The position numbers and the translations under genes were made by a program. Of a DNA stretch of 64,000 nucleotides, positions 1-12,897 are shown one piece after another (position 1 is the stretch's first letter; each line of letters starts with the position of its first letter). The notes beneath the pieces are model-generated. The model was not told the origin of the DNA and did not search any database. It saw only the letters and a list, made by a program, of their open reading frames with translations. Origin of the DNA: an archaeon (GTDB lineage: Archaea; Thermoproteota; Nitrososphaeria; Nitrososphaerales; Gagatemarchaeaceae); assembly GCA_021851265.1 (NCBI GenBank), contig JAJZIG010000001.1, positions 84-64,083 on the forward strand, in the 5' to 3' direction.

Positions 1-168
1 GCTCTCCAAATCCAGTTCGGGGTGCAGAGGGACCACGATGAACGAGACGTCATTGGTCAGCGTGACGTGGCTGGCTCCCCTTCTGCCTGAGCACTCTGAA
101 GCCGAACCGCCTCGCTTCGTCAGTATCTTGACCAGGTCCTTGCCAGAGACCACAGGGAGACGGCTCAA
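1..168 (-). CDS. hicA: HicA-like toxin (mRNA interferase), 3' end beyond window edge
   Basis: Not in the ORF track because it runs off the edge. My translation from TTG at 168 gives LSRLPVVSGKDLVKILTKRG..GASHVTLTNDVSFIVVPLHPELD. This fits the HicA pattern (SGKE/D..kiL...G....GSH......vP.H.eL). It starts 5 nt after the hicB stop. Confidence 0.5.
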   Translation of the reverse strand, partial: MSRLPVVSGKDLVKILTKRGGSASECSGRRGASHVTLTNDVSFIVVPLHPELDLES

Positions 169-434
169 TTGGTCACTCTGCGGGGACGAGCTGCCCTTTC
201 TCTATGGCCACCTTGCCGTGCTCCATGGCGTAGTCGGCCATGGCTTCGAGGTGGGTTTGGATGGCCTCCCTAAGGTTTCGCCTGGCCTCGTCCTTGGTCG
301 CACCCTGGGTGGTGATTCCCAGCCCAGGGACCCTCGCGACGAAGTATCTCTCGCCCTTGTACACCCTGACGCTGAACTGCATGGCCATCAAGCACGAAAA
401 CACTCGCTGACGGTATAAGCCGACACCTGTCAGG
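130..434. repeat. Copy A of a dispersed direct repeat (hicA 5' end + hicB + upstream flank)
   Basis: gaccaggtccttgccagagaccacagg ... ctgccctttctc.atggccac.ttgccgtgctc.atg.cgtagtcggccatggc.tcgag ... taagccgacacc..tgtcagga recurs at 5575-5791 in the same orientation. Confidence 0.75.
173..403 (-). CDS. hicB: HicB-family antitoxin (UPF0150-like)
   Basis: 76-aa ORF. YFVARVPGLGITTQGATKDEARRNLREAIQTHLEAM matches the HicB N-terminal domain signature. It is paired with the hicA-like ORF. Confidence 0.7.
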   Translation of the reverse strand: MFSCLMAMQFSVRVYKGERYFVARVPGLGITTQGATKDEARRNLREAIQTHLEAMADYAMEHGKVAIEKGQLVPAE

Positions 435-802
435 ATGTTGGGAGACAGGAATCCTCGAGCCCCTGGATGGCGTGGACGATTTCGACGGCGAAGCGACCGG
501 CTACTATCTTGGCACCACTCACGTCAGACTGGTCAGGGTCAGAAAGCTGGTACATCTGATGTTCAGCAGCCGCTAAGACGCACTAGCCCACTACGCCGAA
601 GCGAAACTCAGGACAGACTTTCGTTGAAGATGCCGGAGAGAAACACGCACGAAACCAGGGCGCAGGCCGAAGCTTCTACGGATGCTCTCGTTGCGACCGC
701 AATGGCCTCGCGAAAGAGACACGAGAAGACGGTAGGAACCGCTCCACGAGCGAAGTAGCCTACTGGACCACCTGTTCATGAAACGTCCATCAGGCGCAGT
801 TA

Positions 803-1369
803 TCATGGCTGGTCTCTTTCAAGCACAAGTCCGTAGGCTTCTTTGAGCGCACCAATTGCCAGTTTCATTTTCCCGAGGTCATTCTTTCCCCACTCAATCT
901 TAGCGCCTATCGTATAGATTGCTATGTTGCGAGTTCCACCGAATCTCAGTTCCAAGTGTATCTCATGTCGCCTTGATATTTGTCTCAGAACCCTGGCCCA
1001 ATCATCAAATCTCTTGGCAATCAGTGGAAACCTTGAATTGAATGACAGCCGGACGTTGCGTTTCGTGAAGTTGGAAAGGTCCATCTTCATCAGGTCTTTG
1101 GCGCCTTCCTCTCCGTATTCTCTCTCAACGAGCCCTATCGTATCGCCGATTTCGGAGGTTTCTAGCCACACGTAGTTGTCGTGACTCTTCCAAACGTACT
1201 TGATGTGACCAACTTCTTTAGCATAGGCCATATCAGGACACCACACGAACCATTTCGCGTTCTGTTTGACTTCGCTTCGAGATTCAGGCACTTCCGCCAC
1301 TTCGAATGGTGCCCGTACTGACCACGAAAGATAGTCCGCAACCACTTTTTGCTCTGGTTCCTCAGACAT
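803..1369 (-). CDS. Hypothetical 188-aa protein, last gene of the three-gene operon (candidate immunity/partner protein)
   Basis: ORF track. Its ATG overlaps the upstream stop by 8 nt (ATGTCTGA, 1362-1369). Low G+C (28/60 at 841-900). I recognise no motif. Confidence 0.6.
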   Translation of the reverse strand: MSEEPEQKVVADYLSWSVRAPFEVAEVPESRSEVKQNAKWFVWCPDMAYAKEVGHIKYVWKSHDNYVWLETSEIGDTIGLVEREYGEEGAKDLMKMDLSNFTKRNVRLSFNSRFPLIAKRFDDWARVLRQISRRHEIHLELRFGGTRNIAIYTIGAKIEWGKNDLGKMKLAIGALKEAYGLVLERDQP

Positions 1370-3116
1370 TCGAGTTCACCACCTGTCTCACCCGTCTGAC
1401 ATGGATTCGTATCGGGTCATCATTCAGATTCCAATCCATCACCATGACATATCCTCGCTCGATTTCTTCGCCCTGATATTTCCGTTGTCTATCGTAATAA
1501 GTCCCCACCTGAATCTCACCTCGTTTGAGGGCACTCTCTATCTGACCCCAATACTTCGATTCGGAAATCGATAACTTGTGGTCAGGGTCCCGAAATACAT
1601 GGTCAGTGCCGTTTCCTGTGACTCCGACCTTTCGCGTCTCATTAAAGGGGTGCCTTTCTATTCTCTCCCAACCAGCTAGATTCATCAAATTCGAAATCAA
1701 ACCTTCACCTACCTCTCCCTTGACTACACCGTACCTTCTTGTGCCCTCTTCCACCGCGCCTTCAAGGATCGACTTAACAGATTCCTGTAACCTCCTATCC
1801 ACAGCAAAAGTGTAAACCCCATCCGTCCCCTCTGGTGCATCAAGAAGTCTGGCAAGTCGCAGGGCCTCGGGCTTGTCCAGCTGTCCTAGCGAGAGTTTCC
1901 TATCCCCAATATCGGGATGGTCAAGCGACTGTCGATGCTCGTGTACCTCGTTCTTGCTCTGAACATATTTCACCACAAGTTCATCTCCCTCCATCCTCAT
2001 CCCTTCCACAGGGTAGTCCCTGCCGAACCTCACCGCGGCCCTATGTCCGTCGAACTCCAGCTTGCAGTCGTCCTTTCCCTCGAGCTTCCCCCGCAGAACA
2101 AGGTGCGACCCGCTCGTGGACATCTTGTATCCCTCGAGCTCCACCTGGCGCCCGTCCACGTTCAGGAACATCTTCCCCTCCTCGCGCTCCAGCCTGACGT
2201 TCTGCAGGTGTTCGCACTTTCCCCGTTCGAAGTCCCTCGCCATCTTGTATTCGTCAACACCCTTGGCTTCGACTAGCTCGTACTTGCTCCCCTTCGCTCC
2301 CCCGATGTCCCCCACATAGGCCTCCGCCCTGCGGCTTGAGGCGTTGTATCTCGCGTACACAGCTTCCACCTCGTCTCCCTCGATGGGCCTCAGCTCCAGC
2401 TGTACGATCGCGCTGTGGTCAGGCGGGCCGTAGCCTGCCTGCTCCAGGTCGCACATGGGAACCCGCACGTTGGCACCCTTGCCATAGTCGACTGCCTCGA
2501 GGACCCTCGGAACTTCTTCCCGCTCGTTCTGGCCCTGTAAACGCCGCAAACCCGGCGTTTCCGCCTGTTCTTCCTTCTTCTGACCCGGGCTCGCATGCTC
2601 GACCACGAGTATCTGGTCGTCATTTCTGGTGTAGCTCCCAGGACCTGGCTTCTCCGGCGGCTCGGGATCTGGCGGTTTCTCGTCGACACGAGGGTCCTTG
2701 GTGCCGGCCTTTGATCGGACGTCCTTGACCTCTTCCCTGCCCTCCTTCATCCTGTCGGCGTCATCCGCCCCATTCGAACCACCCTTGTCCTGTTGGGCGT
2801 GCTCCTTGGGAGCGTCCTTGCCTGCTTTTTCCTCCTGCGGTGGGGCCTCGCCGGCGTCAGGTCCGGCCTTCTTGGGGTCCTTCCTCACTTCCGACGCTCC
2901 GTCTTTCGCATCGACGGCCTTCTCTCCTTCCTCTCCTTTCTCGCGAGCTCCTGCGCCCTTCCCGTCCTCCTTGCCCGCTATCCCCTCACGCCACCCTTCC
3001 AGGGTCTCCTCGTCGACCCCGTCCACGCCCTTCTCCATCACCTCCTTCCTGAACCCCTCCAGGTCGTCGCCCTTCGACCCCTCGCCCTCGTCGGGCGCGT
3101 CCGACCCTTCACGCAC
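1362..3116 (-). CDS. Large protein: K/E/D/G/P-rich disordered N-terminus, beta-rich middle, C-terminal PD-(D/E)xK-like (restriction-endonuclease-fold) module
   Basis: ORF 1362..3248. I prefer the GTG at 3116, which overlaps the upstream stop by 8 nt. C-terminal motifs: GEVGEGLISNLMNLAGWERIERH, GNGTDHVFRD, LSISESKYW (about nt 1540-1725). Confidence 0.6.
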   Translation of the reverse strand: MREGSDAPDEGEGSKGDDLEGFRKEVMEKGVDGVDEETLEGWREGIAGKEDGKGAGAREKGEEGEKAVDAKDGASEVRKDPKKAGPDAGEAPPQEEKAGKDAPKEHAQQDKGGSNGADDADRMKEGREEVKDVRSKAGTKDPRVDEKPPDPEPPEKPGPGSYTRNDDQILVVEHASPGQKKEEQAETPGLRRLQGQNEREEVPRVLEAVDYGKGANVRVPMCDLEQAGYGPPDHSAIVQLELRPIEGDEVEAVYARYNASSRRAEAYVGDIGGAKGSKYELVEAKGVDEYKMARDFERGKCEHLQNVRLEREEGKMFLNVDGRQVELEGYKMSTSGSHLVLRGKLEGKDDCKLEFDGHRAAVRFGRDYPVEGMRMEGDELVVKYVQSKNEVHEHRQSLDHPDIGDRKLSLGQLDKPEALRLARLLDAPEGTDGVYTFAVDRRLQESVKSILEGAVEEGTRRYGVVKGEVGEGLISNLMNLAGWERIERHPFNETRKVGVTGNGTDHVFRDPDHKLSISESKYWGQIESALKRGEIQVGTYYDRQRKYQGEEIERGYVMVMDWNLNDDPIRIHVRRVRQVVNSNV

Positions 3117-4200
3117 GGGGCCCCGCCTCCAGCTCCTTCCTGAACAGCCTGGGGAACTTCTCCCTCTGCTCAGCGTTGAAGGGGAGATAGTATGCTGTGG
3201 CCAGCGAAAGCACCCTGGTCGCCACCTCGACCACGTCCCTCCCTCCAAACTCCCGGGCCTCCCAGAGCAGGAAGTCCCGCAACCCCTGCGTCCGCCCGTG
3301 CCTCACCCAGTCCCTGTAGGCCCCGAGGAACCCCTCCCTGAACCTGGGGGCTTCCACCAGCGCCTGGACCTTGGCCTCCAGCGGCTCCTCCACTTCCGGG
3401 ACAGGGTTCTTCCTGTAGAACATGGCCATGCACTCCTCCACGTCCGCGTCCGACACCTCGCGCGACTGCATGCTCCACACGTCCTCCCTCACCAGGACCC
3501 TGGCCGGGACCGGGTGCCCCTCGACGCTCACCACCGCCTCCCCGGGCCTGAGCGCCGTGAACACCGCCGCCTGCTCCTCGGTCGCGTTCATCGCCCCGGC
3601 CATCGCCTCCCTGTCAGGCAGGTCAGGGAGCCGGTGGACGAGCTTGGTCGCCGTGTTCTTTATCGCGTCGGGGAGTATCCTCCCCAGGCCGCCGGCGAAC
3701 TCGAGCCTCAGGTTGACGGGGTAGCCGAGCTCGGCGAAGGTCTGAGACAGGCGCTGGAACCTCTGCAGCGTCTCCTTCGGCTCGGCCTTCTTCGTGTCCA
3801 GGTATCCCAGGGGGACGGTCGTCAGCTCGACGCAGCGGAGGGTCTCGGGCCCCCTGTGGCTGCTTCCGCCGAAGATCTCCGAGGCCGGGCCAGCAACCAT
3901 CTCCGTGAACTCCTGGACGAGTCCCGGGAAGAGCCCGAGGACGAGGAGGCTGACCCCGGCGGCGGCGAAGACGATGGGAGAGTAGGTCCCCTGCTCGGCG
4001 ACGGCGACGATGGAGAGGAAGAGGAGGAGCGCCCCCAGGTAGATCATCCAATGCGGCCTCCCGACCCGCGGCTGGGCCTGCCTGTTCGACCAGAACCTGT
4101 AGAGCAGGAAGACCAGGATGGGCACGCCGACTACCAGTGCGCCGACGTTCAGGGCCCACACGGCGAACAGGAACACGAAGGCGGTGAGCTTCCAGCCCAT
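3109..4200 (-). CDS. Membrane protein (about 4 TM) with a soluble domain resembling the post-Walker-B tail of FtsK/HerA-superfamily ATPases; no P-loop seen
   Basis: ORF 3109..4296. I prefer the ATG at 4200 (MGWKLTAFVFLF), which has a TATA-like box 24 nt upstream. Hydrophobic helices WKLTAFVFLFAVWALNVGALVVGVPILVFLL, MIYLGALLLFLSIVAVA and IVFAAAGVSLLVLGLFPGLV. Tail motif IKNTATKLVHRLPD..D.EAMAGAM..TEEQAAVFTALRPGEAVV. Confidence 0.55.
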   Translation of the reverse strand: MGWKLTAFVFLFAVWALNVGALVVGVPILVFLLYRFWSNRQAQPRVGRPHWMIYLGALLLFLSIVAVAEQGTYSPIVFAAAGVSLLVLGLFPGLVQEFTEMVAGPASEIFGGSSHRGPETLRCVELTTVPLGYLDTKKAEPKETLQRFQRLSQTFAELGYPVNLRLEFAGGLGRILPDAIKNTATKLVHRLPDLPDREAMAGAMNATEEQAAVFTALRPGEAVVSVEGHPVPARVLVREDVWSMQSREVSDADVEECMAMFYRKNPVPEVEEPLEAKVQALVEAPRFREGFLGAYRDWVRHGRTQGLRDFLLWEAREFGGRDVVEVATRVLSLATAYYLPFNAEQREKFPRLFRKELEAGPRA

Positions 4201-4218
4201 GGCGGAGAGCCCGCGGGG

Positions 4219-4228
4219 AATACTAAAG
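4219..4228 (-). promoter_or_regulatory. TATA-like box for the three-gene operon (leaderless ATG at 4200)
   Basis: The minus strand reads ctttagtatt, centred about 24 nt upstream of the ATG. Confidence 0.4.
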
Positions 4229-4264
4229 CCGGTTGCGCACCTGTGGGACTCCCCAGAGGAGAGT

Positions 4265-4282
4265 TTCGCCTCGGGAGGCGAA
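4265..4282. promoter_or_regulatory. Perfect 18-nt palindrome between the PIN gene and the operon promoter (hairpin or operator)
   Basis: ttcgcctc-gg-gaggcgaa. Confidence 0.3.
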
Positions 4283-4481
4283 CCATGGGCCGTCAAATCG
4301 AATCAGGGGCTGAGAGGTGGAAATGACCAGCGCTCTTGGAAAGACTTCATCCCTGGCTGTTGTAGGGGACTAGACCACCCGCCACACAGCACCCCTCGAT
4401 CTCACATGGCGACGCCACGGCGGCGTGTGGAGAGGAGCGAAGACATCTCAACTCTGGGAATCGAGGCTTTTGATTGTTCGG

Positions 4482-4919
4482 TCATCTCTTGTACGGGTCG
4501 TCCGTGATGAGATGTCCTTTCTTGAAGTTCACCTCGTTGGCGATGAACTTCAGCAGCGCCGGGTTGCCCAGAAGCTTCCCCTCGAATGTCAGCAGCCCCA
4601 TGCACCTCCGGTCTGTGATGCTCATGGCCAGTATCCGGACATCAGTGCTCTCAAGGTAGCGGTCGACTCTGTGGATCTTGGCGACCATGCTCGAGTAGTG
4701 CCTCAGGTCGTCCGGCTCGACGTGCCCGACAGCGATCTTCTCTTCTTGAAGGTACCTCGTCACTTCACCCAGGTCCAGCTTCAGGTCCTTCTTCGCCGTG
4801 ACCTTGACCAGCTCCCCGAGGCAGATGTCAGGTATGACCGCTCGAATCCCCTTCGCCTTCATCGCGTTGATGGTGTTGGTCGCGAGGTCGGTCTGGTCCC
4901 TGTTCGAAGGGCGACCCAC
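4482..4919 (-). CDS. PIN-domain (VapC-like) toxin; conserved N-terminus lies upstream of the first in-frame start (possible frameshift)
   Basis: The ORF starts at a GTG. It contains IPDICLGELV and STDVRILAMSITDRRCMGLLTFEGKL. The same frame upstream (4920-4997) encodes SSEGVSTAGNYCLDANYAIAYFEGRS, which holds the first PIN acidic residue, but has no ATG/GTG/TTG. Confidence 0.6.
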   Translation of the reverse strand: MGRPSNRDQTDLATNTINAMKAKGIRAVIPDICLGELVKVTAKKDLKLDLGEVTRYLQEEKIAVGHVEPDDLRHYSSMVAKIHRVDRYLESTDVRILAMSITDRRCMGLLTFEGKLLGNPALLKFIANEVNFKKGHLITDDPYKR

Positions 4920-4989
4920 GCTCCTCCCCTCGAAGTACGCGATGGCGTAGTTCGCGTCGAGGCAGTAGTTTCCGGCCGTGGAGACGCCC

Positions 4990-5439
4990 TCACTGGATTA
5001 TGTTCTGTGAACGGAGGTCGCGCAATACCTTCTCTGCCATCGGGTCGGTCACCCAGGGCTTCGACACCCGGAGGGCACCAGGGAGGTCACCGTCGCTTAT
5101 CCCTGCGGGGGTCTCCTTCAGCGCCATGATGGCGGAAGCCAGCTCTATCCAGCTGTCCTTGTGGTCCATGAACCAGTCCAGCTTTGCCAGGACGTCGGGC
5201 TCGAGGTCAGCCTCACCTCCCGGCTTGGCGTTGTAGTACCACTGCGCGAGGGTCGAGGAATAGGGCCCGTGGATGTACAGCCCGTACTCGAGCTCGGTGA
5301 ACGGCTCCACCCCAAGGTGCCTCAGCAGGAAGGCCGCCTTCTGGAGCCTGAACCTGGCCGAGAAGTCGCCGTCGATGGCTCTCGCTGTCACTCTGAGGCG
5401 CTCCATCAGCCATCCAATCGACGCTTCATTCTTGGGCAA
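4990..5439 (-). CDS. DUF4065/Panacea-domain (SocA/GepA-like) putative antitoxin
   Basis: RLQKAAFLLRHLGVEPFTELEYGLYIHGPYSSTLAQWYY fits klqKLlY......g.pl....f.aw.hGPv.p.vY. It lies immediately upstream of the PIN gene. Confidence 0.55.
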   Translation of the reverse strand: MPKNEASIGWLMERLRVTARAIDGDFSARFRLQKAAFLLRHLGVEPFTELEYGLYIHGPYSSTLAQWYYNAKPGGEADLEPDVLAKLDWFMDHKDSWIELASAIMALKETPAGISDGDLPGALRVSKPWVTDPMAEKVLRDLRSQNIIQ

Positions 5440-5481: not shown

Positions 5482-5574
5482 GGGGGGACGCCGAAACCAT
5501 CGAATCTTGTGGCACGTGTCCCTGGAAGTGTCGGGCCCATGCCGAGCGCCGAAAACGACGTGGGTGAACGACCT

Positions 5575-5737
5575 GACCAGGTCCTTGCCAGAGACCACAG
5601 GGGGGTGGCTCAACCGCTCACTCTGAGGGGACTAGCTGCCCTTTCTCAATGGCCACTTTGCCGTGCTCTATCGCGTAGTCGGCCATGGCCTCGAGATGGC
5701 TCTGGATGGCTTCCCGCAAGTTGCGTCTCGCCGCCTC
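5575..5737 (-). pseudogene. Decayed hicAB copy (frameshifted hicA 5' stub + C-terminal half of hicB)
   Basis: The minus strand encodes EAARRNLREAIQSHLEAMADYAIEHGKVAIEKGQLVPSE-stop (stop at 5618-5620). The N-terminal hicB half present at 290-400 is missing. The hicA start region carries an extra base and then diverges. Confidence 0.65.
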
Positions 5738-5845: not shown

Positions 5846-6100
5846 TTGAAGCGGAGGTCGGACATCGTCATCATGATGCAGGTACTGGAGCAGGTCCGCA
5901 GGGAGCCTAGGGGTCCGACGAGGCTCGCGCAGTCCGTGAACCTTTCGTTCGACAAGTGCATGCCGTATCTCCGGTCACTGGAACAGAAGGGGCTCATCGC
6001 CAAGGGCGCCAGCGAAGGCAGGGACGTCTACATGATAACCCAAGTTGGCGTCGATACGTTCCTGGAGTGGGAGAGGTTGTGGGAGAAGCTCAAGCCATGA
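5846..6100 (+). CDS. Small winged-helix transcriptional regulator (HTH_45-like)
   Basis: RSDIVIMMQVLEQV..PRGPTRLAQSVNLSFDKCMPYLRSLEQKGLI....GRDVYMITQVG fits the archaeal wHTH pattern. Confidence 0.6.
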   Translation: MKRRSDIVIMMQVLEQVRREPRGPTRLAQSVNLSFDKCMPYLRSLEQKGLIAKGASEGRDVYMITQVGVDTFLEWERLWEKLKP

Positions 6101-6151: not shown

Positions 6152-6499
6152 ATGACTGAAGACAGGCCCAGCCAGGTTGAGATTCACGAGGACTTCATCC
6201 AGCACGTGGAGGACGCCAGCTCGAAGATGCGGATACTGTCGGCGGTAAGCGCGGTCGTCGCCTTCCTTCTGGTGCTCGCCTACATCTCGCAACTCGTGCT
6301 CCCTCTGACCGGGACGACGAGCGTGAAGGTGAGCTTGACCGATCCTGCTCTTATTGCAACCGAGATAGCAGTACTGGTTCTGTCCGTCGCCTGGCTCTAC
6401 GTCGGGGTCAGCAACTACCGCTTTACTACGAGGCTGGCCAGGCGCATCGCAGCAGCGAGGGCCGCAGAAGCCGAGTTAGAGAAGAAGATGGCTGGTTAG
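6152..6499 (+). CDS. Hypothetical membrane protein (2 TM)
   Basis: ORF track. Hydrophobic helices AVSAVVAFLLVLAYISQLVL and IAVLVLSVAWLYVGV. Confidence 0.5.
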   Translation: MTEDRPSQVEIHEDFIQHVEDASSKMRILSAVSAVVAFLLVLAYISQLVLPLTGTTSVKVSLTDPALIATEIAVLVLSVAWLYVGVSNYRFTTRLARRIAAARAAEAELEKKMAG

Positions 6500-8719: not shown

Positions 8720-9664
8720 ATGGCCAGAAGGCTGCGATTCTCGCCTAAATCTCTCGAGCTGACCAGGGCCCACCACTGGCAGGGAAAGAGGAATGAACTG
8801 CTGTATGACATACTGCGGCTCGAGCCTCGCCACGCGGTGGTAGACGTCGGGTGCGGTACAGGGGCGTTCACACGAATCCTTGCTGAGCGGCTGGACCAAA
8901 GGAAGCGCGGCAAAGTCGTCGGTGTCGACCGGGACGCGAGACTCTTGGCGGCCGCGAGGAAGCTCGCCTCTGAATGCGGCCTGTCTTCACGGATTGAGTT
9001 CAGACGGGGCGACGCCAAATCACTCCCATTCCCCGACGGTTTCGCTGACAGGGTCGTGTGTCAGGCCGTATTGTGGCTAATGACCCGCGGTGAGAGAGAA
9101 GCGACCCTCAAAGAAATGCTACGCGTATGCAAGAAGGGAGGCTTGGTTGCAGCGGTCGAAGGCTCCATCGACACTTCAGTTACCTGGTTCCCAGACGACC
9201 CCCGGCTGACTGACCTCTACGCTAGGCAGACCAGGGCCATGATTGAAGGCTACAAGCGGGTCTACGGCTACGACAGGCGCATAGGATACAAGCTCCCCTC
9301 GCTGTTCACCAAGCTTGGGTTGACCGGAGCCCGGTTGGACGGGGTCGCCGACGCGAGGCTGCGCCTGGACGACCGCTTCCCTCTTTCTTATACTCAAGAC
9401 GTCATCGGGCTATGGTACCTCAGATATCCTAGACAACTGCTCTCGAAACTCGACAGGATGGCCGGAGACGGGGCAAGGAGGGCCTACATCGAAAAGTCCG
9501 AGCCAATCCTGACGGCAGGGGGGATGACGTGGAAGGAGATCATCGAGCTCAACAGGCTGAGGATCGAGTACGGCACCAGGCTGTCGAAGGGCCCAAGAGC
9601 TGTCCGCCACGATGCCACGGTCGAAGCAGGGATTTCTTTCATCACGACTGGAATCAAGCCCTAA
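8720..9664 (+). CDS. Class I SAM-dependent methyltransferase
   Basis: VVDVGCGTGAFTRILAERL, PFPDGFADRVVC, GGLVAAVE. Confidence 0.75.
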   Translation: MARRLRFSPKSLELTRAHHWQGKRNELLYDILRLEPRHAVVDVGCGTGAFTRILAERLDQRKRGKVVGVDRDARLLAAARKLASECGLSSRIEFRRGDAKSLPFPDGFADRVVCQAVLWLMTRGEREATLKEMLRVCKKGGLVAAVEGSIDTSVTWFPDDPRLTDLYARQTRAMIEGYKRVYGYDRRIGYKLPSLFTKLGLTGARLDGVADARLRLDDRFPLSYTQDVIGLWYLRYPRQLLSKLDRMAGDGARRAYIEKSEPILTAGGMTWKEIIELNRLRIEYGTRLSKGPRAVRHDATVEAGISFITTGIKP

Positions 9665-10935: not shown

Positions 10936-12897
10936 GTGTCCAACCACGTATATACGACGCTCCGCCTCTTCGGCGCGACATTGGGCTCCAACGAGACCTA
11001 CCGCCATCTGTCTAACTCTTACGGGAAGAACCACTTCGAGGTCGACAGACCGTTGAAGCTCGTCCTGAGGTACTTCCGCATGGTACCAGACCTCTCCGCC
11101 CTGGGGAGGTTCGCCGGAAAGGAACTCTACGAAGTGGCCGACTACGTGGACAAGGTGGCCAGACCTAGGCTCGTGACCTGGAGCATCAACGGCGAAAGGG
11201 TCGACGAAGTTTGGCTCGACCCAGGCGAGCGCGGCGCTCTCGACAAGCTATTCAGGGAGTTTGGGGTGAACAAGTCCCCCTACAGGGGAGGGAGTTGGTT
11301 CGACCACTACGCGTCGATATACCTGATATCCGACCCGGGCATTGCCTGCATCCTGACTGTCACGAATCAGACCGCCTACGCCCTTTACAAGTACGGGGAC
11401 GAAGGACAGAAGAAACTTGTCGGCGGCCTGATAGGCGAAGAAGACGCCGTGAAGTACGGCGCGACCTGGTTCACAGAGCTCCAGGGAGGCAGCGACCTGG
11501 GAGCCAACCTCGTCGAGTCTCACGAGGAGAATGGTAGATGGCGGGTCATAGGCGACACGAAGTATTTCGCCAGCGACGCCGGTCTGGCGGACTACGCGCT
11601 AGTCACCGCCAGGCCACAGGGGGCGCCCGCCGGCGCCAAGGGGCTGGGGCTCTTCCTCGTGCCGCGGTACGACTCGACAGGTAGAAAGAACTTCGACGTC
11701 AGGAGGCTGAAGGACAAGAGCGCCACTGCGAGCGTCCCCACTGGCGAGGTCGAGTTCCACGACTCAGAGGCTACGCTGGTAGGAGACCTTCGGAAGGGCA
11801 TCTATTACACAATGGAGAACCTGATGGTCTCTCGGCTGGCGAACTCCTTCGGCGCGCTGGGCATTGCTAGGAAGGCGTTCCTCGAAGCGTACTACTATAC
11901 CCAAGAGAGAAGCGCCTTCGGGAAGCTATTGGTGGAGCATCCCCTAGTCCAGAGGGATCTGCTGGACATGGAGGTGTATATTGAGGGGTCAATGGCTCTG
12001 GCCTTCAAGGCTGTCGACCTGTTCGAGAGGTCCTGGAAGGACACACCCCCTTACACGGACGCCTACCACTACGCGAGGCTCCTCGCCCACATCACGAAAA
12101 ACACCACGGCCGAAATGTCTGCCCACACGACCAAGGTCGCCATGGAGCTCCTGGGAGGGATAGGGTTCCTGAACGAGTATCCTGTCGAAAGGCTCCACAG
12201 GGAGGCGCTCATCACGCCGATATGGGAAGGACCCAGCAACGTCCAGGCCTTGGACATGCTCGAAGTGATCACCAAGAAGAACGCGCACATGACGCTACTG
12301 GACGACATGAGGACCCTCGAAGAGGGAATTGTTGATGGGCGGGAGTTCGCGGGTCTCGCCATGAGGGAGATGGAGGTGGCCCTCGCCAGGCTCTCTTCCT
12401 CGGACGACATGGCGGCTCAGTTCTATGCCAAAGACGTGCTCAACACGCTCGGCCACGGGGTCGCCACTATCATGCTCCTCGAGGTGGGAAGGGGGGTCGG
12501 AGAGCGGAGGTTCGTCTCCATGGCTCGGCTGTACGCGCTCCGCTTCCTCGAAGGCAAGCCCTATCCCGCCGAGTCTCTGACGGAGGCCAGGAAGCTGTTC
12601 GCAGTGGACGTGATGGCTGACGACTCCGGAGCCTGCAGCGAGGGACCGCAGGACGATCGCATGACCGGCCCCGAACAGGCGCACCTCACCAGCCAATCCG
12701 AGGACGAAGTCGAATTCGGAAAGCAGCGGGCCCGCTTCCTGGCGGAGCTCCAAGGAGACCCGAAGAAGTGCCCTCACCCGTTCCGATTCCGAGAATGGAG
12801 CATGGAGAATCCCTCCCAGGACATAGGCTGGAACACCTCCGAGCGGCGGACATTTCGTTGCAGAATCTGCGGTAGGGTCGTCACCGAGAGGGTCTAG
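10936..12897 (+). CDS. AidB-like acyl-CoA dehydrogenase with a roughly 100-aa C-terminal extension ending in a Cys/His cluster
   Basis: ORF 10771..12897. The start is uncertain (GTG at 10936 or later). WFTELQGGSDLGANL, YFASDAGLADYALVTARP, ERLHREALITPIWEGPSNV. The tail has CPHP...CRICG. Confidence 0.8.
   Translation: MSNHVYTTLRLFGATLGSNETYRHLSNSYGKNHFEVDRPLKLVLRYFRMVPDLSALGRFAGKELYEVADYVDKVARPRLVTWSINGERVDEVWLDPGERGALDKLFREFGVNKSPYRGGSWFDHYASIYLISDPGIACILTVTNQTAYALYKYGDEGQKKLVGGLIGEEDAVKYGATWFTELQGGSDLGANLVESHEENGRWRVIGDTKYFASDAGLADYALVTARPQGAPAGAKGLGLFLVPRYDSTGRKNFDVRRLKDKSATASVPTGEVEFHDSEATLVGDLRKGIYYTMENLMVSRLANSFGALGIARKAFLEAYYYTQERSAFGKLLVEHPLVQRDLLDMEVYIEGSMALAFKAVDLFERSWKDTPPYTDAYHYARLLAHITKNTTAEMSAHTTKVAMELLGGIGFLNEYPVERLHREALITPIWEGPSNVQALDMLEVITKKNAHMTLLDDMRTLEEGIVDGREFAGLAMREMEVALARLSSSDDMAAQFYAKDVLNTLGHGVATIMLLEVGRGVGERRFVSMARLYALRFLEGKPYPAESLTEARKLFAVDVMADDSGACSEGPQDDRMTGPEQAHLTSQSEDEVEFGKQRARFLAELQGDPKKCPHPFRFREWSMENPSQDIGWNTSERRTFRCRICGRVVTERV

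Follow-up and report, generated by a model that had tools for sequence, protein, structure and literature searches.

Colicins E2, E7, E8 and E9 are variants of one design, in which homologous nuclease-type domains are matched by homologous cognate partners. Such colicin E-type DNase-immunity pairs, together with polymorphic toxin, CDI and Rhs systems (Zhang et al., 2012; PMC3482391), resemble in several respects the locus reported here, a previously undescribed three-gene operon in the defence islands of Nitrososphaerota. The operon encodes, in this order, a membrane-anchored HerA-like ATPase, a middle protein (MID) and a partner of about 190 aa. As in the toxin systems, the N-terminal body is conserved and the C-terminal domain variable, changes in that domain are matched in the small gene that directly follows, both are swapped together through recombination in adjoining conserved sequence, and a displaced orphan C-terminus lies downstream with its partner. 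The likeness to the colicin E-type pairs extends to the MID C-termini and the partners, each homologous among types. However, the operon is archaeal and holds a single C-terminal family instead of many unrelated toxin folds. Furthermore, neither a secretion or trafficking domain nor a repeat stalk or secretion apparatus could be recognised, the associated gene of the operon encodes a membrane HerA-type ATPase, and toxicity and immunity are putative here. Classical polymorphic toxin loci are reported to be rare in archaea, where they are mostly bacterial imports (PMC3482391).

A second comparison is offered by DUF4297-HerA and Sir2-HerA, in which a HerA-clade ATPase is likewise encoded in defence islands beside a PD-(D/E)xK-type nuclease effector (putative in the present case); in DUF4297-HerA, the nuclease is regulated through its assembly with the ATPase hexamer (PMC11291478). 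DUF4297-HerA is a soluble two-gene system, whereas the ATPase described here has an N-terminal anchor of four transmembrane (TM) helices and a pre-ATPase region of about 400 aa. In addition, MID matches no DUF4297, Pfam or PADLOC model, a third, co-varying partner gene is present, and the effector end undergoes allelic module exchange. The ATPase architecture, with a TM domain followed by an N-terminal domain of unknown type and a C-terminal HerA/VirB4-like ATPase, recalls CedD and CedB of the crenarchaeal Ced DNA import system (PMC11868833). NCBIfam CedD (NF053655) is among the best ATPase matches (E 1.3e-16), but the protein is not a CedD member, because its 60.4 bits are far below the cut-off of 600. 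Unlike in the Ced system, cedA and pilin genes are absent nearby, and the ATPase shares its operon with a nuclease-like protein and a small partner. Finally, the archaeal HerA-NurA pair for DNA-end resection also sets a HerA-family ATPase beside a nuclease (nuclease-like in the present operon). NurA is not known to be a PD-(D/E)xK protein. HerA-NurA is a soluble housekeeping pair with broad conservation, whereas the present operon has a membrane anchor, belongs to the accessory genes (found in 6 of 151 genomes in the order) and is hypervariable.

Operon layout and the middle gene

In the window, i.e., the whole stretch of 64,000 nucleotides analysed, the operon lies on the minus strand. Its first gene (3109..4296) encodes a HerA/DUF87-type ATPase reduced to 395 aa. 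A tblastn search with the 923-aa protein of locus L001 joined residues 2-199 directly to 732-920, leaving about 200-731 missing, and locus comparison identified an in-frame internal deletion of 1605 nt with its junction at nt 3679, a position corresponding to both 7833 and 9438 of locus L003. The intact 898-aa L003 allele matches Pfam DUF87 (37.7 bits, cut-off 23.2) and PADLOC HerA (5e-15); the 395-aa copy has no DUF87 match in Pfam. Loss of the ATPase core has probably crippled the system in the genome from which the window comes. Divergent from the operon, on the plus strand, lie an HTH_45 winged-helix regulator (5846-6100; Pfam HTH_45, 1.1e-13) and a 115-aa membrane protein (6152-6499), a conserved neighbour pair that also adjoins the operon in L001, L002, L009, L022 and L023. 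tRNA and Rfam scans of the 64-kb window returned nothing.

MID (1362..3116, minus strand) is a 584-aa protein with a GTG start, and 38 homologues cover its residues 200-584. Its gene overlaps the upstream ATPase gene by 8 nt (GTGCGTGA) and the downstream partner gene by another 8 nt (ATGTCTGA). Residues 1-234 (2415..3116) hold a conserved N-terminal LE(E/G)FR motif, present also in distant family members, after which comes an acidic, low-complexity, disordered spacer that varies in length; a Pfam search found no domain in the N-terminus, where Gly, Ala, Glu and Pro abound. Residues 235-376 (1989..2414) form the high-GC3 part (0.74-0.91) of a conserved core, which retains 65-79% amino-acid identity across all allele types and is modelled by AF2 entirely as beta strands with a pLDDT of about 90. 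Beyond it lies the low-G+C cassette, or type-A module (803..1988), delimited by the GC3 change point and tetranucleotide composition. Within it lie the last ~22 core codons, a linker, the alpha/beta C-terminal domain of MID in full and the entire 188-aa partner gene (803..1369, minus strand). At all 11 loci studied whose contig extends far enough, the partner gene directly follows MID, always with the 8-nt overlap. Searches of MID and the partner against Pfam, NCBIfam and PADLOC assigned no family, PDB sequence profiles for both gave spurious matches only, and Foldseek comparison of the two-domain MID model with the PDB yielded nothing significant.

The composition step and its persistence

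A preliminary description, made from the letters of the DNA, had reported a sharp G+C drop in 803-2000, with a break near nt 2000 inside the 584-aa ORF and low G+C limited to its last ~210 codons and the next gene. Sliding windows, genome-wide 1-kb windows, GC3 and tetranucleotide profiles all contain this step. In region 803-2000, G+C is 48.9%, the genome mean being 60.5% (z = -2.8); of the 6825 1-kb windows of the genome, only 0.23% reach so low a value. Along the sliding profile, G+C falls from 0.61-0.70 at nt 2001-4100 to 0.46-0.52 at nt 801-1900, and bin 1001-2000 (0.492) is the minimum among all 64 1-kb bins of the window. The change is concentrated at third codon positions, with GC3 passing from 0.84-0.92 to about 0.50 across the step while GC1 and GC2 stay nearly flat. 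By maximum likelihood, the change point falls after codon 376 of 584, at nt 1988 (2-log-likelihood interval nt 1982-2018), so that the last ~208 codons are low and the position first described is accurate; mean GC3 in the ORF is 0.78 before and 0.51 after it, and the log-likelihood ratio of 21.3 compares with a best value of 9.2 in 2000 permutations (p<=5e-4). An intragenic GC3 step can thus locate a module boundary to within ~20 codons. The partner gene has a GC3 of 0.52, and its stop codon (nt 803) forms the 3' border, G+C returning to 0.55-0.62 directly beyond it. In tetranucleotide distance to the genome, 803-1988 stands at the 99.3rd percentile and the flanking segments at the 61st-90th.

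Such a step could in principle arise from a chimeric metagenome assembly, the source genome being a MAG in 212 contigs, or from amino-acid composition, given the Gly/Ala/Glu/Pro-rich MID N-terminus. The junction recurs, however, at 99.9-100% identity across independent NCBI and ENA assemblies (23 contigs read; the protein is indexed in 48 blocks) and was also found in a JGI locus of 60-69% identity, which discards a chimera; the confinement of the step to GC3, with GC1 and GC2 barely moving, discards a composition effect. The chance that either artefact produced the step is negligible.

Among the relatives, the step occurs at the identical codon in the type-A loci L003, L009 and L002, the last with a module of 60-69% nucleotide identity and equally low GC3, and it is absent from type-B loci. 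Because all type-A loci, even at this divergence, have the step at codon ~376, low G+C is a persistent property of the module. A GC3 of ~0.5 is thus an old trait of the type-A allele and not the mark of a fresh, un-ameliorated import.

A reading that needs no transfer holds that hypervariable 3' modules are intrinsically lower in GC3, either as diverged alleles that escape homologous recombination and GC-biased conversion or through relaxed codon selection, whereas in the conserved ATPase and core GC3 is driven to very high values. It agrees with the values of all 11 loci, in which C-terminus and partner have a GC3 of 0.51-0.70 against 0.77-0.94 for the ATPase, and with an ATPase GC3 of 0.93, at about the 99th percentile of genome ORFs (median 0.74). 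It leaves unexplained, however, the abruptness of the step and its type-specific position, the drop falling at codon 376 in type A while the linker of type-B loci stays at 0.71-0.84, except in L022 (0.57); it also gives no reason for the conflicting trees or for the orphan described below. As a sufficient explanation it is therefore rather doubtful, although it is compatible with module exchange and does not exclude it. Since a weaker GC3 fall toward the C-terminus and partner is seen in every locus, part of the step may have a cause other than transfer, such as a reduced strength of GC-biased gene conversion or of codon selection where the DNA is hypervariable. The preferred reading, which we hold with good though not full confidence, is that an exchangeable module of this three-gene archaeal operon has its fixed 5' border at the G+C step at nt ~1988.

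Module exchange and a displaced orphan

The loci compared include two in metagenome contigs and six in genome contigs, the rest coming from contigs that encode homologous proteins. They fall into deeply diverged allelic types, namely A, B and the more distant forms of L023 and L024, and several allele types occur among assemblies of one ENA accession series. Between types, the core is 65-79% identical and the linker plus C-terminus 27-47%. At the nucleotide level, identity of type A to type B falls from 80-85% to about 50% over codons 376-399. The homologues are all collinear, each with a C-terminus of this one PD-(D/E)xK-like family and a partner that likewise belongs to a single family, and no foreign domain has therefore been grafted onto MID.

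That C-terminus and partner gene move between lineages as one unit by recombination, as had been proposed, is established by tree incongruence, co-variation and a displaced orphan. In the window's lineage, the ATPase is 81% identical to that of type-B L001, 79% to type-B L022 and 66% to L009. Identity to L009 is 93-97% in core, linker, C-terminus and partner; to type-B loci, it is 26-35% in linker, C-terminus and partner. In AU tests of clades chosen after inspection of the identity matrices, the type-A clade was rejected by the ATPase data (p=2e-10), and the grouping of L003, L001 and L022 was rejected by the linker plus C-terminus (p=1e-4) and by the partner (p=8e-64). Mantel correlations of the partner reached r=0.95 with the linker and r=0.95 with the C-terminus, against 0.64 with the core and 0.18 with the ATPase. 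The window's lineage combines an ATPase and a MID N-terminus that belong to the type-B clade with a type-A module. Pairwise dN/dS values of 0.1-0.6 gave no sign of positive selection.

Synonymous divergence between L003 and L009 is lowest in the exchanged part, with dS of 0.57 in the ATPase, 0.18 in the core, 0.08 in the C-terminus and 0.086 in the partner. Together with the strongly atypical composition, this could favour a recent arrival of the cassette from a low-G+C donor, with the step as the un-ameliorated scar of a single event. However, the tract recently shared with L009 (94.7% nucleotide identity) starts at position 10480 of L003, that is, at MID residue ~160 and not at codon 376; the step occurs at the same codon in the far more diverged L002, and a uniformly low-G+C donor gene was not found. 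A fresh import is consequently quite unlikely. With the latest-transfer tract beginning at about MID residue 50-160 and the step common to all type-A loci, the codon-376 step is not the breakpoint of the latest transfer in the window's lineage, and the preliminary description needs correction where it treats the step as the direct product of an exchange event. Its appeal to a polymorphic-toxin type of exchange survives as regards the unit swap of C-terminus and partner and fails as regards the C-termini, which belong to one family: the process is allele replacement within a family and not the unrelated-toxin diversity of classical polymorphic toxins. Crossover would take place in the last conserved block adjoining the variable region.

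A suggested search for orphan cassettes also succeeded. In a set of near-identical assemblies (L003-L008 and L011), an orphan type-B C-terminus with an intact 195-aa partner gene lies just downstream of the operon. In L003, 13108-13434 is 85% identical to the C-terminus of L017, and the next gene, of 195 aa, is 76% identical to the L017 partner. A 162-aa ORF of L003 matches HicA_toxin over residues 9-53 (E 0.0016) and then continues as GWERIERHPF.... The window retains the corresponding start: a truncated hicA-like ORF (1..168, minus strand; translation of window 168..1) reads on in frame into the orphan type-B C-terminus, which begins at about nt 9-1 and continues beyond the window and beyond its contig, C157, where positions 3-92 match the C-terminus profile (E 1.4e-12). 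Upstream of this ORF lies a hicB-like antitoxin gene of 76 aa (173..403, minus strand; Pfam UPF0150 8e-5, HicB_lk_antitox 9e-4, both sub-gathering). All HicAB bit scores are below their cut-offs, with 19.8 (27) for HicB_lk_antitox, 22.9 (27.3) for UPF0150 and 19 (27) for HicA_toxin. The orphan is a former type-B C-terminus with its partner, displaced downstream behind a hicBA insertion; the arrangement was found once, in this one set of closely related assemblies.

Between the partner and the hicB-like gene, just 3' of the partner, lies a conserved, apparently non-coding element (481..754, minus strand). It is 72% identical in nucleotides to the region 3' of the type-B partner in L017, while the adjacent partners are only 26% identical. 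It may serve as a right-hand homology arm or as a regulatory or terminator region. Its mismatches have no codon periodicity (20/16/24), and a small ORF at 591-806 and an antisense ORF were for this reason dropped as candidate genes.

Candidate function and significance

The C-terminal domain of MID is a putative nuclease effector. Its PD-(D/E)xK-like core (residues 482-584; 1365..1673, minus strand) was delineated from invariant alignment columns, DSSP and sub-threshold Pfam matches, and the evidence for a nuclease consists of the motif, the predicted topology and these Pfam matches. Invariant positions comprise GWExIERHPF, D505, PD512, E519-x-K521 and Q536; D505, PD512, E519, K521 and Q536 are unchanged in 11 C-termini of every type, orphan included, and the E and D are nearly invariant among 68 distant relatives. 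In the AF2 model the catalytic-type residues are located at beta2 and beta3. DSSP gives two helices followed by beta-beta-beta-alpha-beta-beta, and the elements of the confident model (H225-246, E250-254, E272-275, E281-288, H292-309, E320-327) follow an order that fits an alpha-beta-beta-beta-alpha-beta core. Nuclease matches of the MID model in Foldseek against the PDB were weak (AdnA, prob 0.63; CinB), and curated families gave sub-threshold matches only: Mrr_cat 0.006, PDDEXK_9 0.037, HamA 0.0019, RmuC 0.011, REase-ARP 0.16 and SduA_C 0.13. A profile search with the C-terminus gathered 125 clusters sharing this one domain, with the MID core also present in 68 of 118, and among them neither alternative N-terminal architectures nor alternative C-termini were seen.

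The partner model is confident (pLDDT 90.9, pTM 0.86), with a predicted alpha-beta3-alpha-(helical insert)-beta2-alpha fold. Its best PDB match is 3cxj, an uncharacterised archaeal protein (prob 1.0, E 1.3e-3, TM 0.41/0.49), and it is weakly similar to the T3SS chaperone VecA (prob 0.60, TM 0.43/0.57). We infer that the partner would bind the C-terminal domain specifically, as an inhibitor or immunity protein or as an adaptor, and because of this putative binding the two would have to travel together. MID, in turn, may be recruited by the ATPase hexamer through its N-terminal motif. A toxin/immunity function of C-terminus and partner is plausible, and a conflict system is the most likely role of the operon, whether in anti-mobile-element defence or in inter-strain antagonism, and would be under diversifying, frequency-dependent selection.

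The neighbours of the operon include type IIG restriction-modification, Mrr, SLFN-type helicase, HEPN and toxin-antitoxin genes, and no relative was detected in the viral contigs searched. An intracellular anti-virus or anti-plasmid HerA-plus-nuclease system, with the partner as regulatory or adaptor subunit and module types that differ in trigger or target specificity, would fit this defence-island setting, the patchy distribution within the order, the PADLOC HerA matches of the ATPase and the precedent of a nuclease activated on the HerA hexamer (PMC11291478). However, no PADLOC model matches MID or the partner, the membrane-anchored ATPase and the three genes depart from DUF4297-HerA and Sir2-HerA, and such a system offers no obvious role for keeping an intact orphan partner; its prospects fall slightly short of even.

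The retained orphan partner would be explained if MID were an exported polymorphic nuclease toxin, the partner its cognate immunity protein and the membrane HerA/FtsK-type ATPase a dedicated exporter like a type VII secretion motor, the orphan partner then conferring immunity to an earlier toxin type. Such an arrangement would agree with the variable C-terminal domain, the tightly co-varying downstream gene, the four predicted TM helices, the role of FtsK/HerA ATPases in T7SS toxin export (PMC3482391), the weak chaperone likeness of the partner and the multiple allele types within one ENA accession series. It is countered by the single family of C-termini, by neighbours that are defence and not secretion genes, and by the rarity of classical polymorphic toxins in archaea. 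No signal peptide, secretion domain, channel component or secretion apparatus was identified, the membrane ATPase being the sole candidate for a secretion component, and export is unlikely. By analogy, the operon would be a native archaeal inter-strain weapon, in which the ATPase exports the MID toxin, a chaperone-like partner provides immunity and orphan immunity genes are retained, comparable to T7SS LXG-type toxins or colicin DNase-Im pairs and independently evolved in Nitrososphaerota; a small probability, similar to that of export itself, is given to this proposal. The caveat also applies that all C-termini are homologous, as are the partners, and their co-variation could reflect ordinary co-evolution of interacting subunits with no toxin/antidote relation.

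Little is known about the conflict systems of Nitrososphaerota (Thaumarchaeota and relatives), and two of the three operon proteins are without a Pfam, NCBIfam or PADLOC model. The operon bears the full evolutionary signature of an arms race between effectors and cognate partners, with allelic nuclease-like modules, strict co-variation, exchange as a unit and a displaced orphan. If the relationship between nuclease and partner is confirmed, the operon would represent a new HerA-linked effector family and provide a natural set of orthogonal nuclease-binder pairs.

The three-gene operon and its setting

The 584-aa middle gene (minus strand, 1362..3116) and its 188-aa partner (minus strand, 803..1369) matched no family in Pfam, NCBIfam or PADLOC. 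By homology searches and neighbourhood look-ups, both were found to belong to a conserved, translationally coupled three-gene operon present at about a dozen Nitrososphaerota loci, one 96%-identical homologue being labelled Nitrososphaerota archaeon. The operon links a ~900-aa membrane protein, with TM helices at its N-terminus and a HerA/DUF87 ATPase, to the middle protein and to a partner of 186-199 aa; both gene junctions in the window are 8-nt overlaps. The ATPase matched Pfam DUF87 (37.7 bits) and PADLOC HerA (5e-15), while its NCBIfam CedD and HerA_antiphage scores lay far under the cut-offs. Conserved beside the operon, and transcribed away from it, are an HTH_45 regulator and a small membrane protein. 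Since the genes nearby encode type IIG restriction-modification, Mrr, SLFN-type helicase, HEPN, MazG-like and toxin-antitoxin functions, the setting is a defence island. With the C-terminal domain of the middle protein as marker, the operon was detected in 6 of the 151 genomes for the order, in 3 of the ~20 for the genus, and on none of the viral contigs searched. Within the libraries searched, the system appears undescribed.

In this genome, the ATPase gene (3109-4296, minus strand) has lost 1605 nt in frame, with the junction at nt 3679, and the ATPase (P-loop) core is gone. This deletion varies among 99.9%-identical assemblies: the window and L004 share it, while L003 and L005-L008, the majority of contigs read, have the intact gene. 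In addition, an inserted pair of 149-aa and 145-aa genes (4482-5439) is without counterpart in the other loci, and a 142-nt direct repeat of hicB/hicA sequence (129-270 and 5574-5715, 88% identity) has one copy downstream of the partner and a decayed copy between HTH_45 and the inserted pair.

From alignments A1, A3 and A4 and an AF2 model (pLDDT 88), the middle protein has a conserved LE(E/D)FR motif at its N-terminus, followed by a low-complexity acidic spacer whose length varies greatly, a core built entirely of beta strands (residues ~235-398), a flexible linker and an alpha/beta C-terminal domain. In the latter, a catalytic-type motif is conserved: GWExIERHPF, D505, PD512, E519-x-K521 and Q536 are invariant, and these residues, together with the modelled beta-beta-beta-alpha-beta order, point to a PD-(D/E)xK pattern. 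The corresponding database matches were all sub-threshold (Mrr_cat, PDDEXK_9, HamA, RmuC, REase-ARP, SduA_C), and Foldseek returned weak matches only, to AdnA and CinB. The partner was modelled with confidence (pLDDT 91, pTM 0.86) as an alpha-beta3-alpha-(helical insert)-beta2-alpha fold, closest to the uncharacterised archaeal structure 3cxj and weakly matching a type III secretion chaperone. Residues ~15-30 of the middle protein (window ~3030-3070) carry LE(E/D)FR(K/E)E...(K)YG, which is kept even in relatives below 25% identity, sits in front of an acidic, disordered spacer 0-500 aa long, and is a candidate docking peptide. Stand-alone ORFs homologous solely to the beta core (37-43% identity; L009/L011 2757-3545 and L021 1-363) sit several kb upstream of the operon, and distant family members contain 2-3 core repeats.

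Exchange of the C-terminal module together with the partner

The module occurs as deeply diverged alleles, type A (the window and its near-identical assembly L003, L009, L013, L014 and L002) and type B (L001, L017, L021 and L022), with more distant forms in L023 and L024. Between types, the core is 65-79% identical, and linker, C-terminus and partner 25-47%. The window-lineage ATPase is 81% identical to L001 and 79% to L022, both type B, and 66% to L009, whereas identity to L009 is 93-97% over the core, the linker, the C-terminus and the partner. In AU tests on groups named only after the identity matrices had been seen, ATPase data rejected a type-A clade (p-AU 2e-10), and the ATPase grouping was rejected by linker plus C-terminus data (p 1e-4) and by partner data (p 8e-64). 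Furthermore, partner identity co-varies with that of the linker and of the C-terminus (r=0.95 each, Mantel p=2e-4), compared with r=0.64 for the core and r=0.18 for the ATPase.

An orphan C-terminus with its partner, the kind of cassette that the preliminary description proposed to look for, lies downstream of the window-type module. The assemblies L003-L008, which share 99.97% identity with the window, have hicB next to the 188-aa gene; then come a truncated hicA, joined in frame to a C-terminus of type B, a 195-aa partner and a 192-aa gene. The orphan C-terminus begins GWERIERHPF and is 85% identical to that of L017, and its type-B partner is 76% identical. The 192-aa gene (L003 14247-14825) is a distant partner-family paralogue (23-27% identity) with a 36%-identical counterpart after the L017 partner (8789-9028). 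The L017 order, in the same genus, is type-B middle gene, partner and 192-like gene, presumed to be ancestral. The window's contig stops 92 nt into the orphan, and this short stretch matches the profile of the C-terminus (E 1.4e-12).

Because of this mosaicism, the incongruent trees, the co-variation and the orphan, the C-terminal part of the middle protein and the partner are seen to be exchanged as a unit. The earlier reading of a swapped-in cassette is supported as regards exchange. The grafting of a foreign domain is not seen: homologues are collinear down to the last residue, the module is C-terminal in all 125 clusters that its profile found among 1.84 billion representatives, and the core is also present in 68 of 118 module proteins. 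The unrelated-toxin diversity of classical polymorphic toxin loci is absent, one C-terminal module occurring in all 125 clusters; the polymorphic toxin/immunity label is so far only an analogy.

Two further sequences were recorded. Behind the partner, an element of ~270 nt (481-754), lacking codon periodicity, is 72% identical to the stretch behind the L017 type-B partner, the adjoining genes being just 26% identical; it could be a homology arm, terminator or regulatory RNA. In L027 (G097:C31, same genus), a second, distant C-terminus-like fragment (12534-12821; 131-aa open frame, 36% identical to the L024 C-terminus) lies ~7 kb upstream of that genome's operon.

The compositional step

The source MAG (1.89 Mb, 212 contigs), of which the window covers C157:84-64083, has 60.5% G+C. 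In 300-nt windows, G+C is 0.61-0.70 at nt 2001-4100 and 0.46-0.52 at nt 801-1900; 1001-2000 is the lowest of the 64 1-kb bins, and 803-2000 (48.9%) ranks with the bottom 0.23% of the genome's 1-kb windows. Along the minus-strand middle ORF, GC3 falls from 0.84-0.92 to ~0.50 with GC1 and GC2 almost unchanged, so the drop is synonymous. The likelihood change point on GC3 follows codon 376 when the ORF is read as 584 aa from the GTG at 3116, which puts it at nt 1988 (support interval 1982-2018; LLR 21.3 vs a null maximum of 9.2 in 2000 permutations). The partner (1369..803) has GC3 0.52, with G+C back up directly past its stop codon, and the tetranucleotide distance of 803-1988 from the genome is at the 99.3rd percentile. 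The low G+C first noticed by eye is thereby confirmed; the per-line hand counts were correct, as was the break near nt 2000. Other 1-kb windows with G+C down at the level of the cassette (0.47-0.50), on contigs C96, C101, C52, C95, C49, C200, C201 and C48, are candidates for additional islands; on C200 there is also a distant DUF87 paralogue beside HTH_45 and membrane-protein genes.

The step had been taken as the trace of the swap itself, which is not borne out for the last transfers. A tract in common with the L009 lineage (94.7% nt identity) runs from L003 10480, at residue ~160 of the middle protein, through hicB, the ATPase being only 75% identical, and dS between L003 and L009 declines stepwise down the operon (ATPase 0.57, core 0.18, linker 0.14, C-terminus plus partner 0.08); the breakpoints of the last transfers are therefore upstream of the step. 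Moreover, all type-A loci have the step at codon ~376, including L002, whose module is only 60-69% nt identical yet equally low in GC3; in type-B loci GC3 stays high at this position. As type-A loci switch to A/T-ending synonymous codons from codon 377, where the protein is still conserved, codon usage points to a probable ancient junction within the final conserved block, ~20 codons ahead of the structural domain boundary. In our reading, the step is a fixed border of the type-A allele, whose low G+C is either maintained or re-imported repeatedly.

Part of the step reflects unusually high upstream GC3, because the ATPase value of 0.93 is at the ~99th percentile of ORFs in the genome (median 0.74). 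GC3 declines toward C-terminus plus partner in all loci (0.51-0.70 vs 0.77-0.94 for the ATPase), and we read a general tendency to lower GC3 at the hypervariable end, relative to the conserved, frequently recombining end, as also contributing. Across orthologues of the ATPase gene (L003 7312-10008), GC3 is 0.86-0.94 in most loci.

Possible mechanism and role

The C-terminal domain would act as a putative nuclease effector, which the partner would bind specifically as an inhibitor/immunity protein or adaptor, while the N-terminal peptide and disordered spacer may tether the middle protein to the ATPase. Such specific binding would account for the joint movement and for the persisting purifying selection (dN/dS 0.1-0.6). 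An exported toxin/immunity system, by analogy with the FtsK/HerA motor of T7SS type (PMC3482391), is ranked as less likely than intracellular defence and seems improbable. As the ATPase has the same architecture as CedD of the crenarchaeal DNA-import system, namely TM, N-terminal domain and HerA-like ATPase (PMC11868833), a membrane role linked to DNA translocation is conceivable as well. The role that we tentatively favour, at somewhat under even chances, is that of an intracellular HerA-plus-nuclease defence system, for which DUF4297-HerA provides a precedent (PMC11291478).
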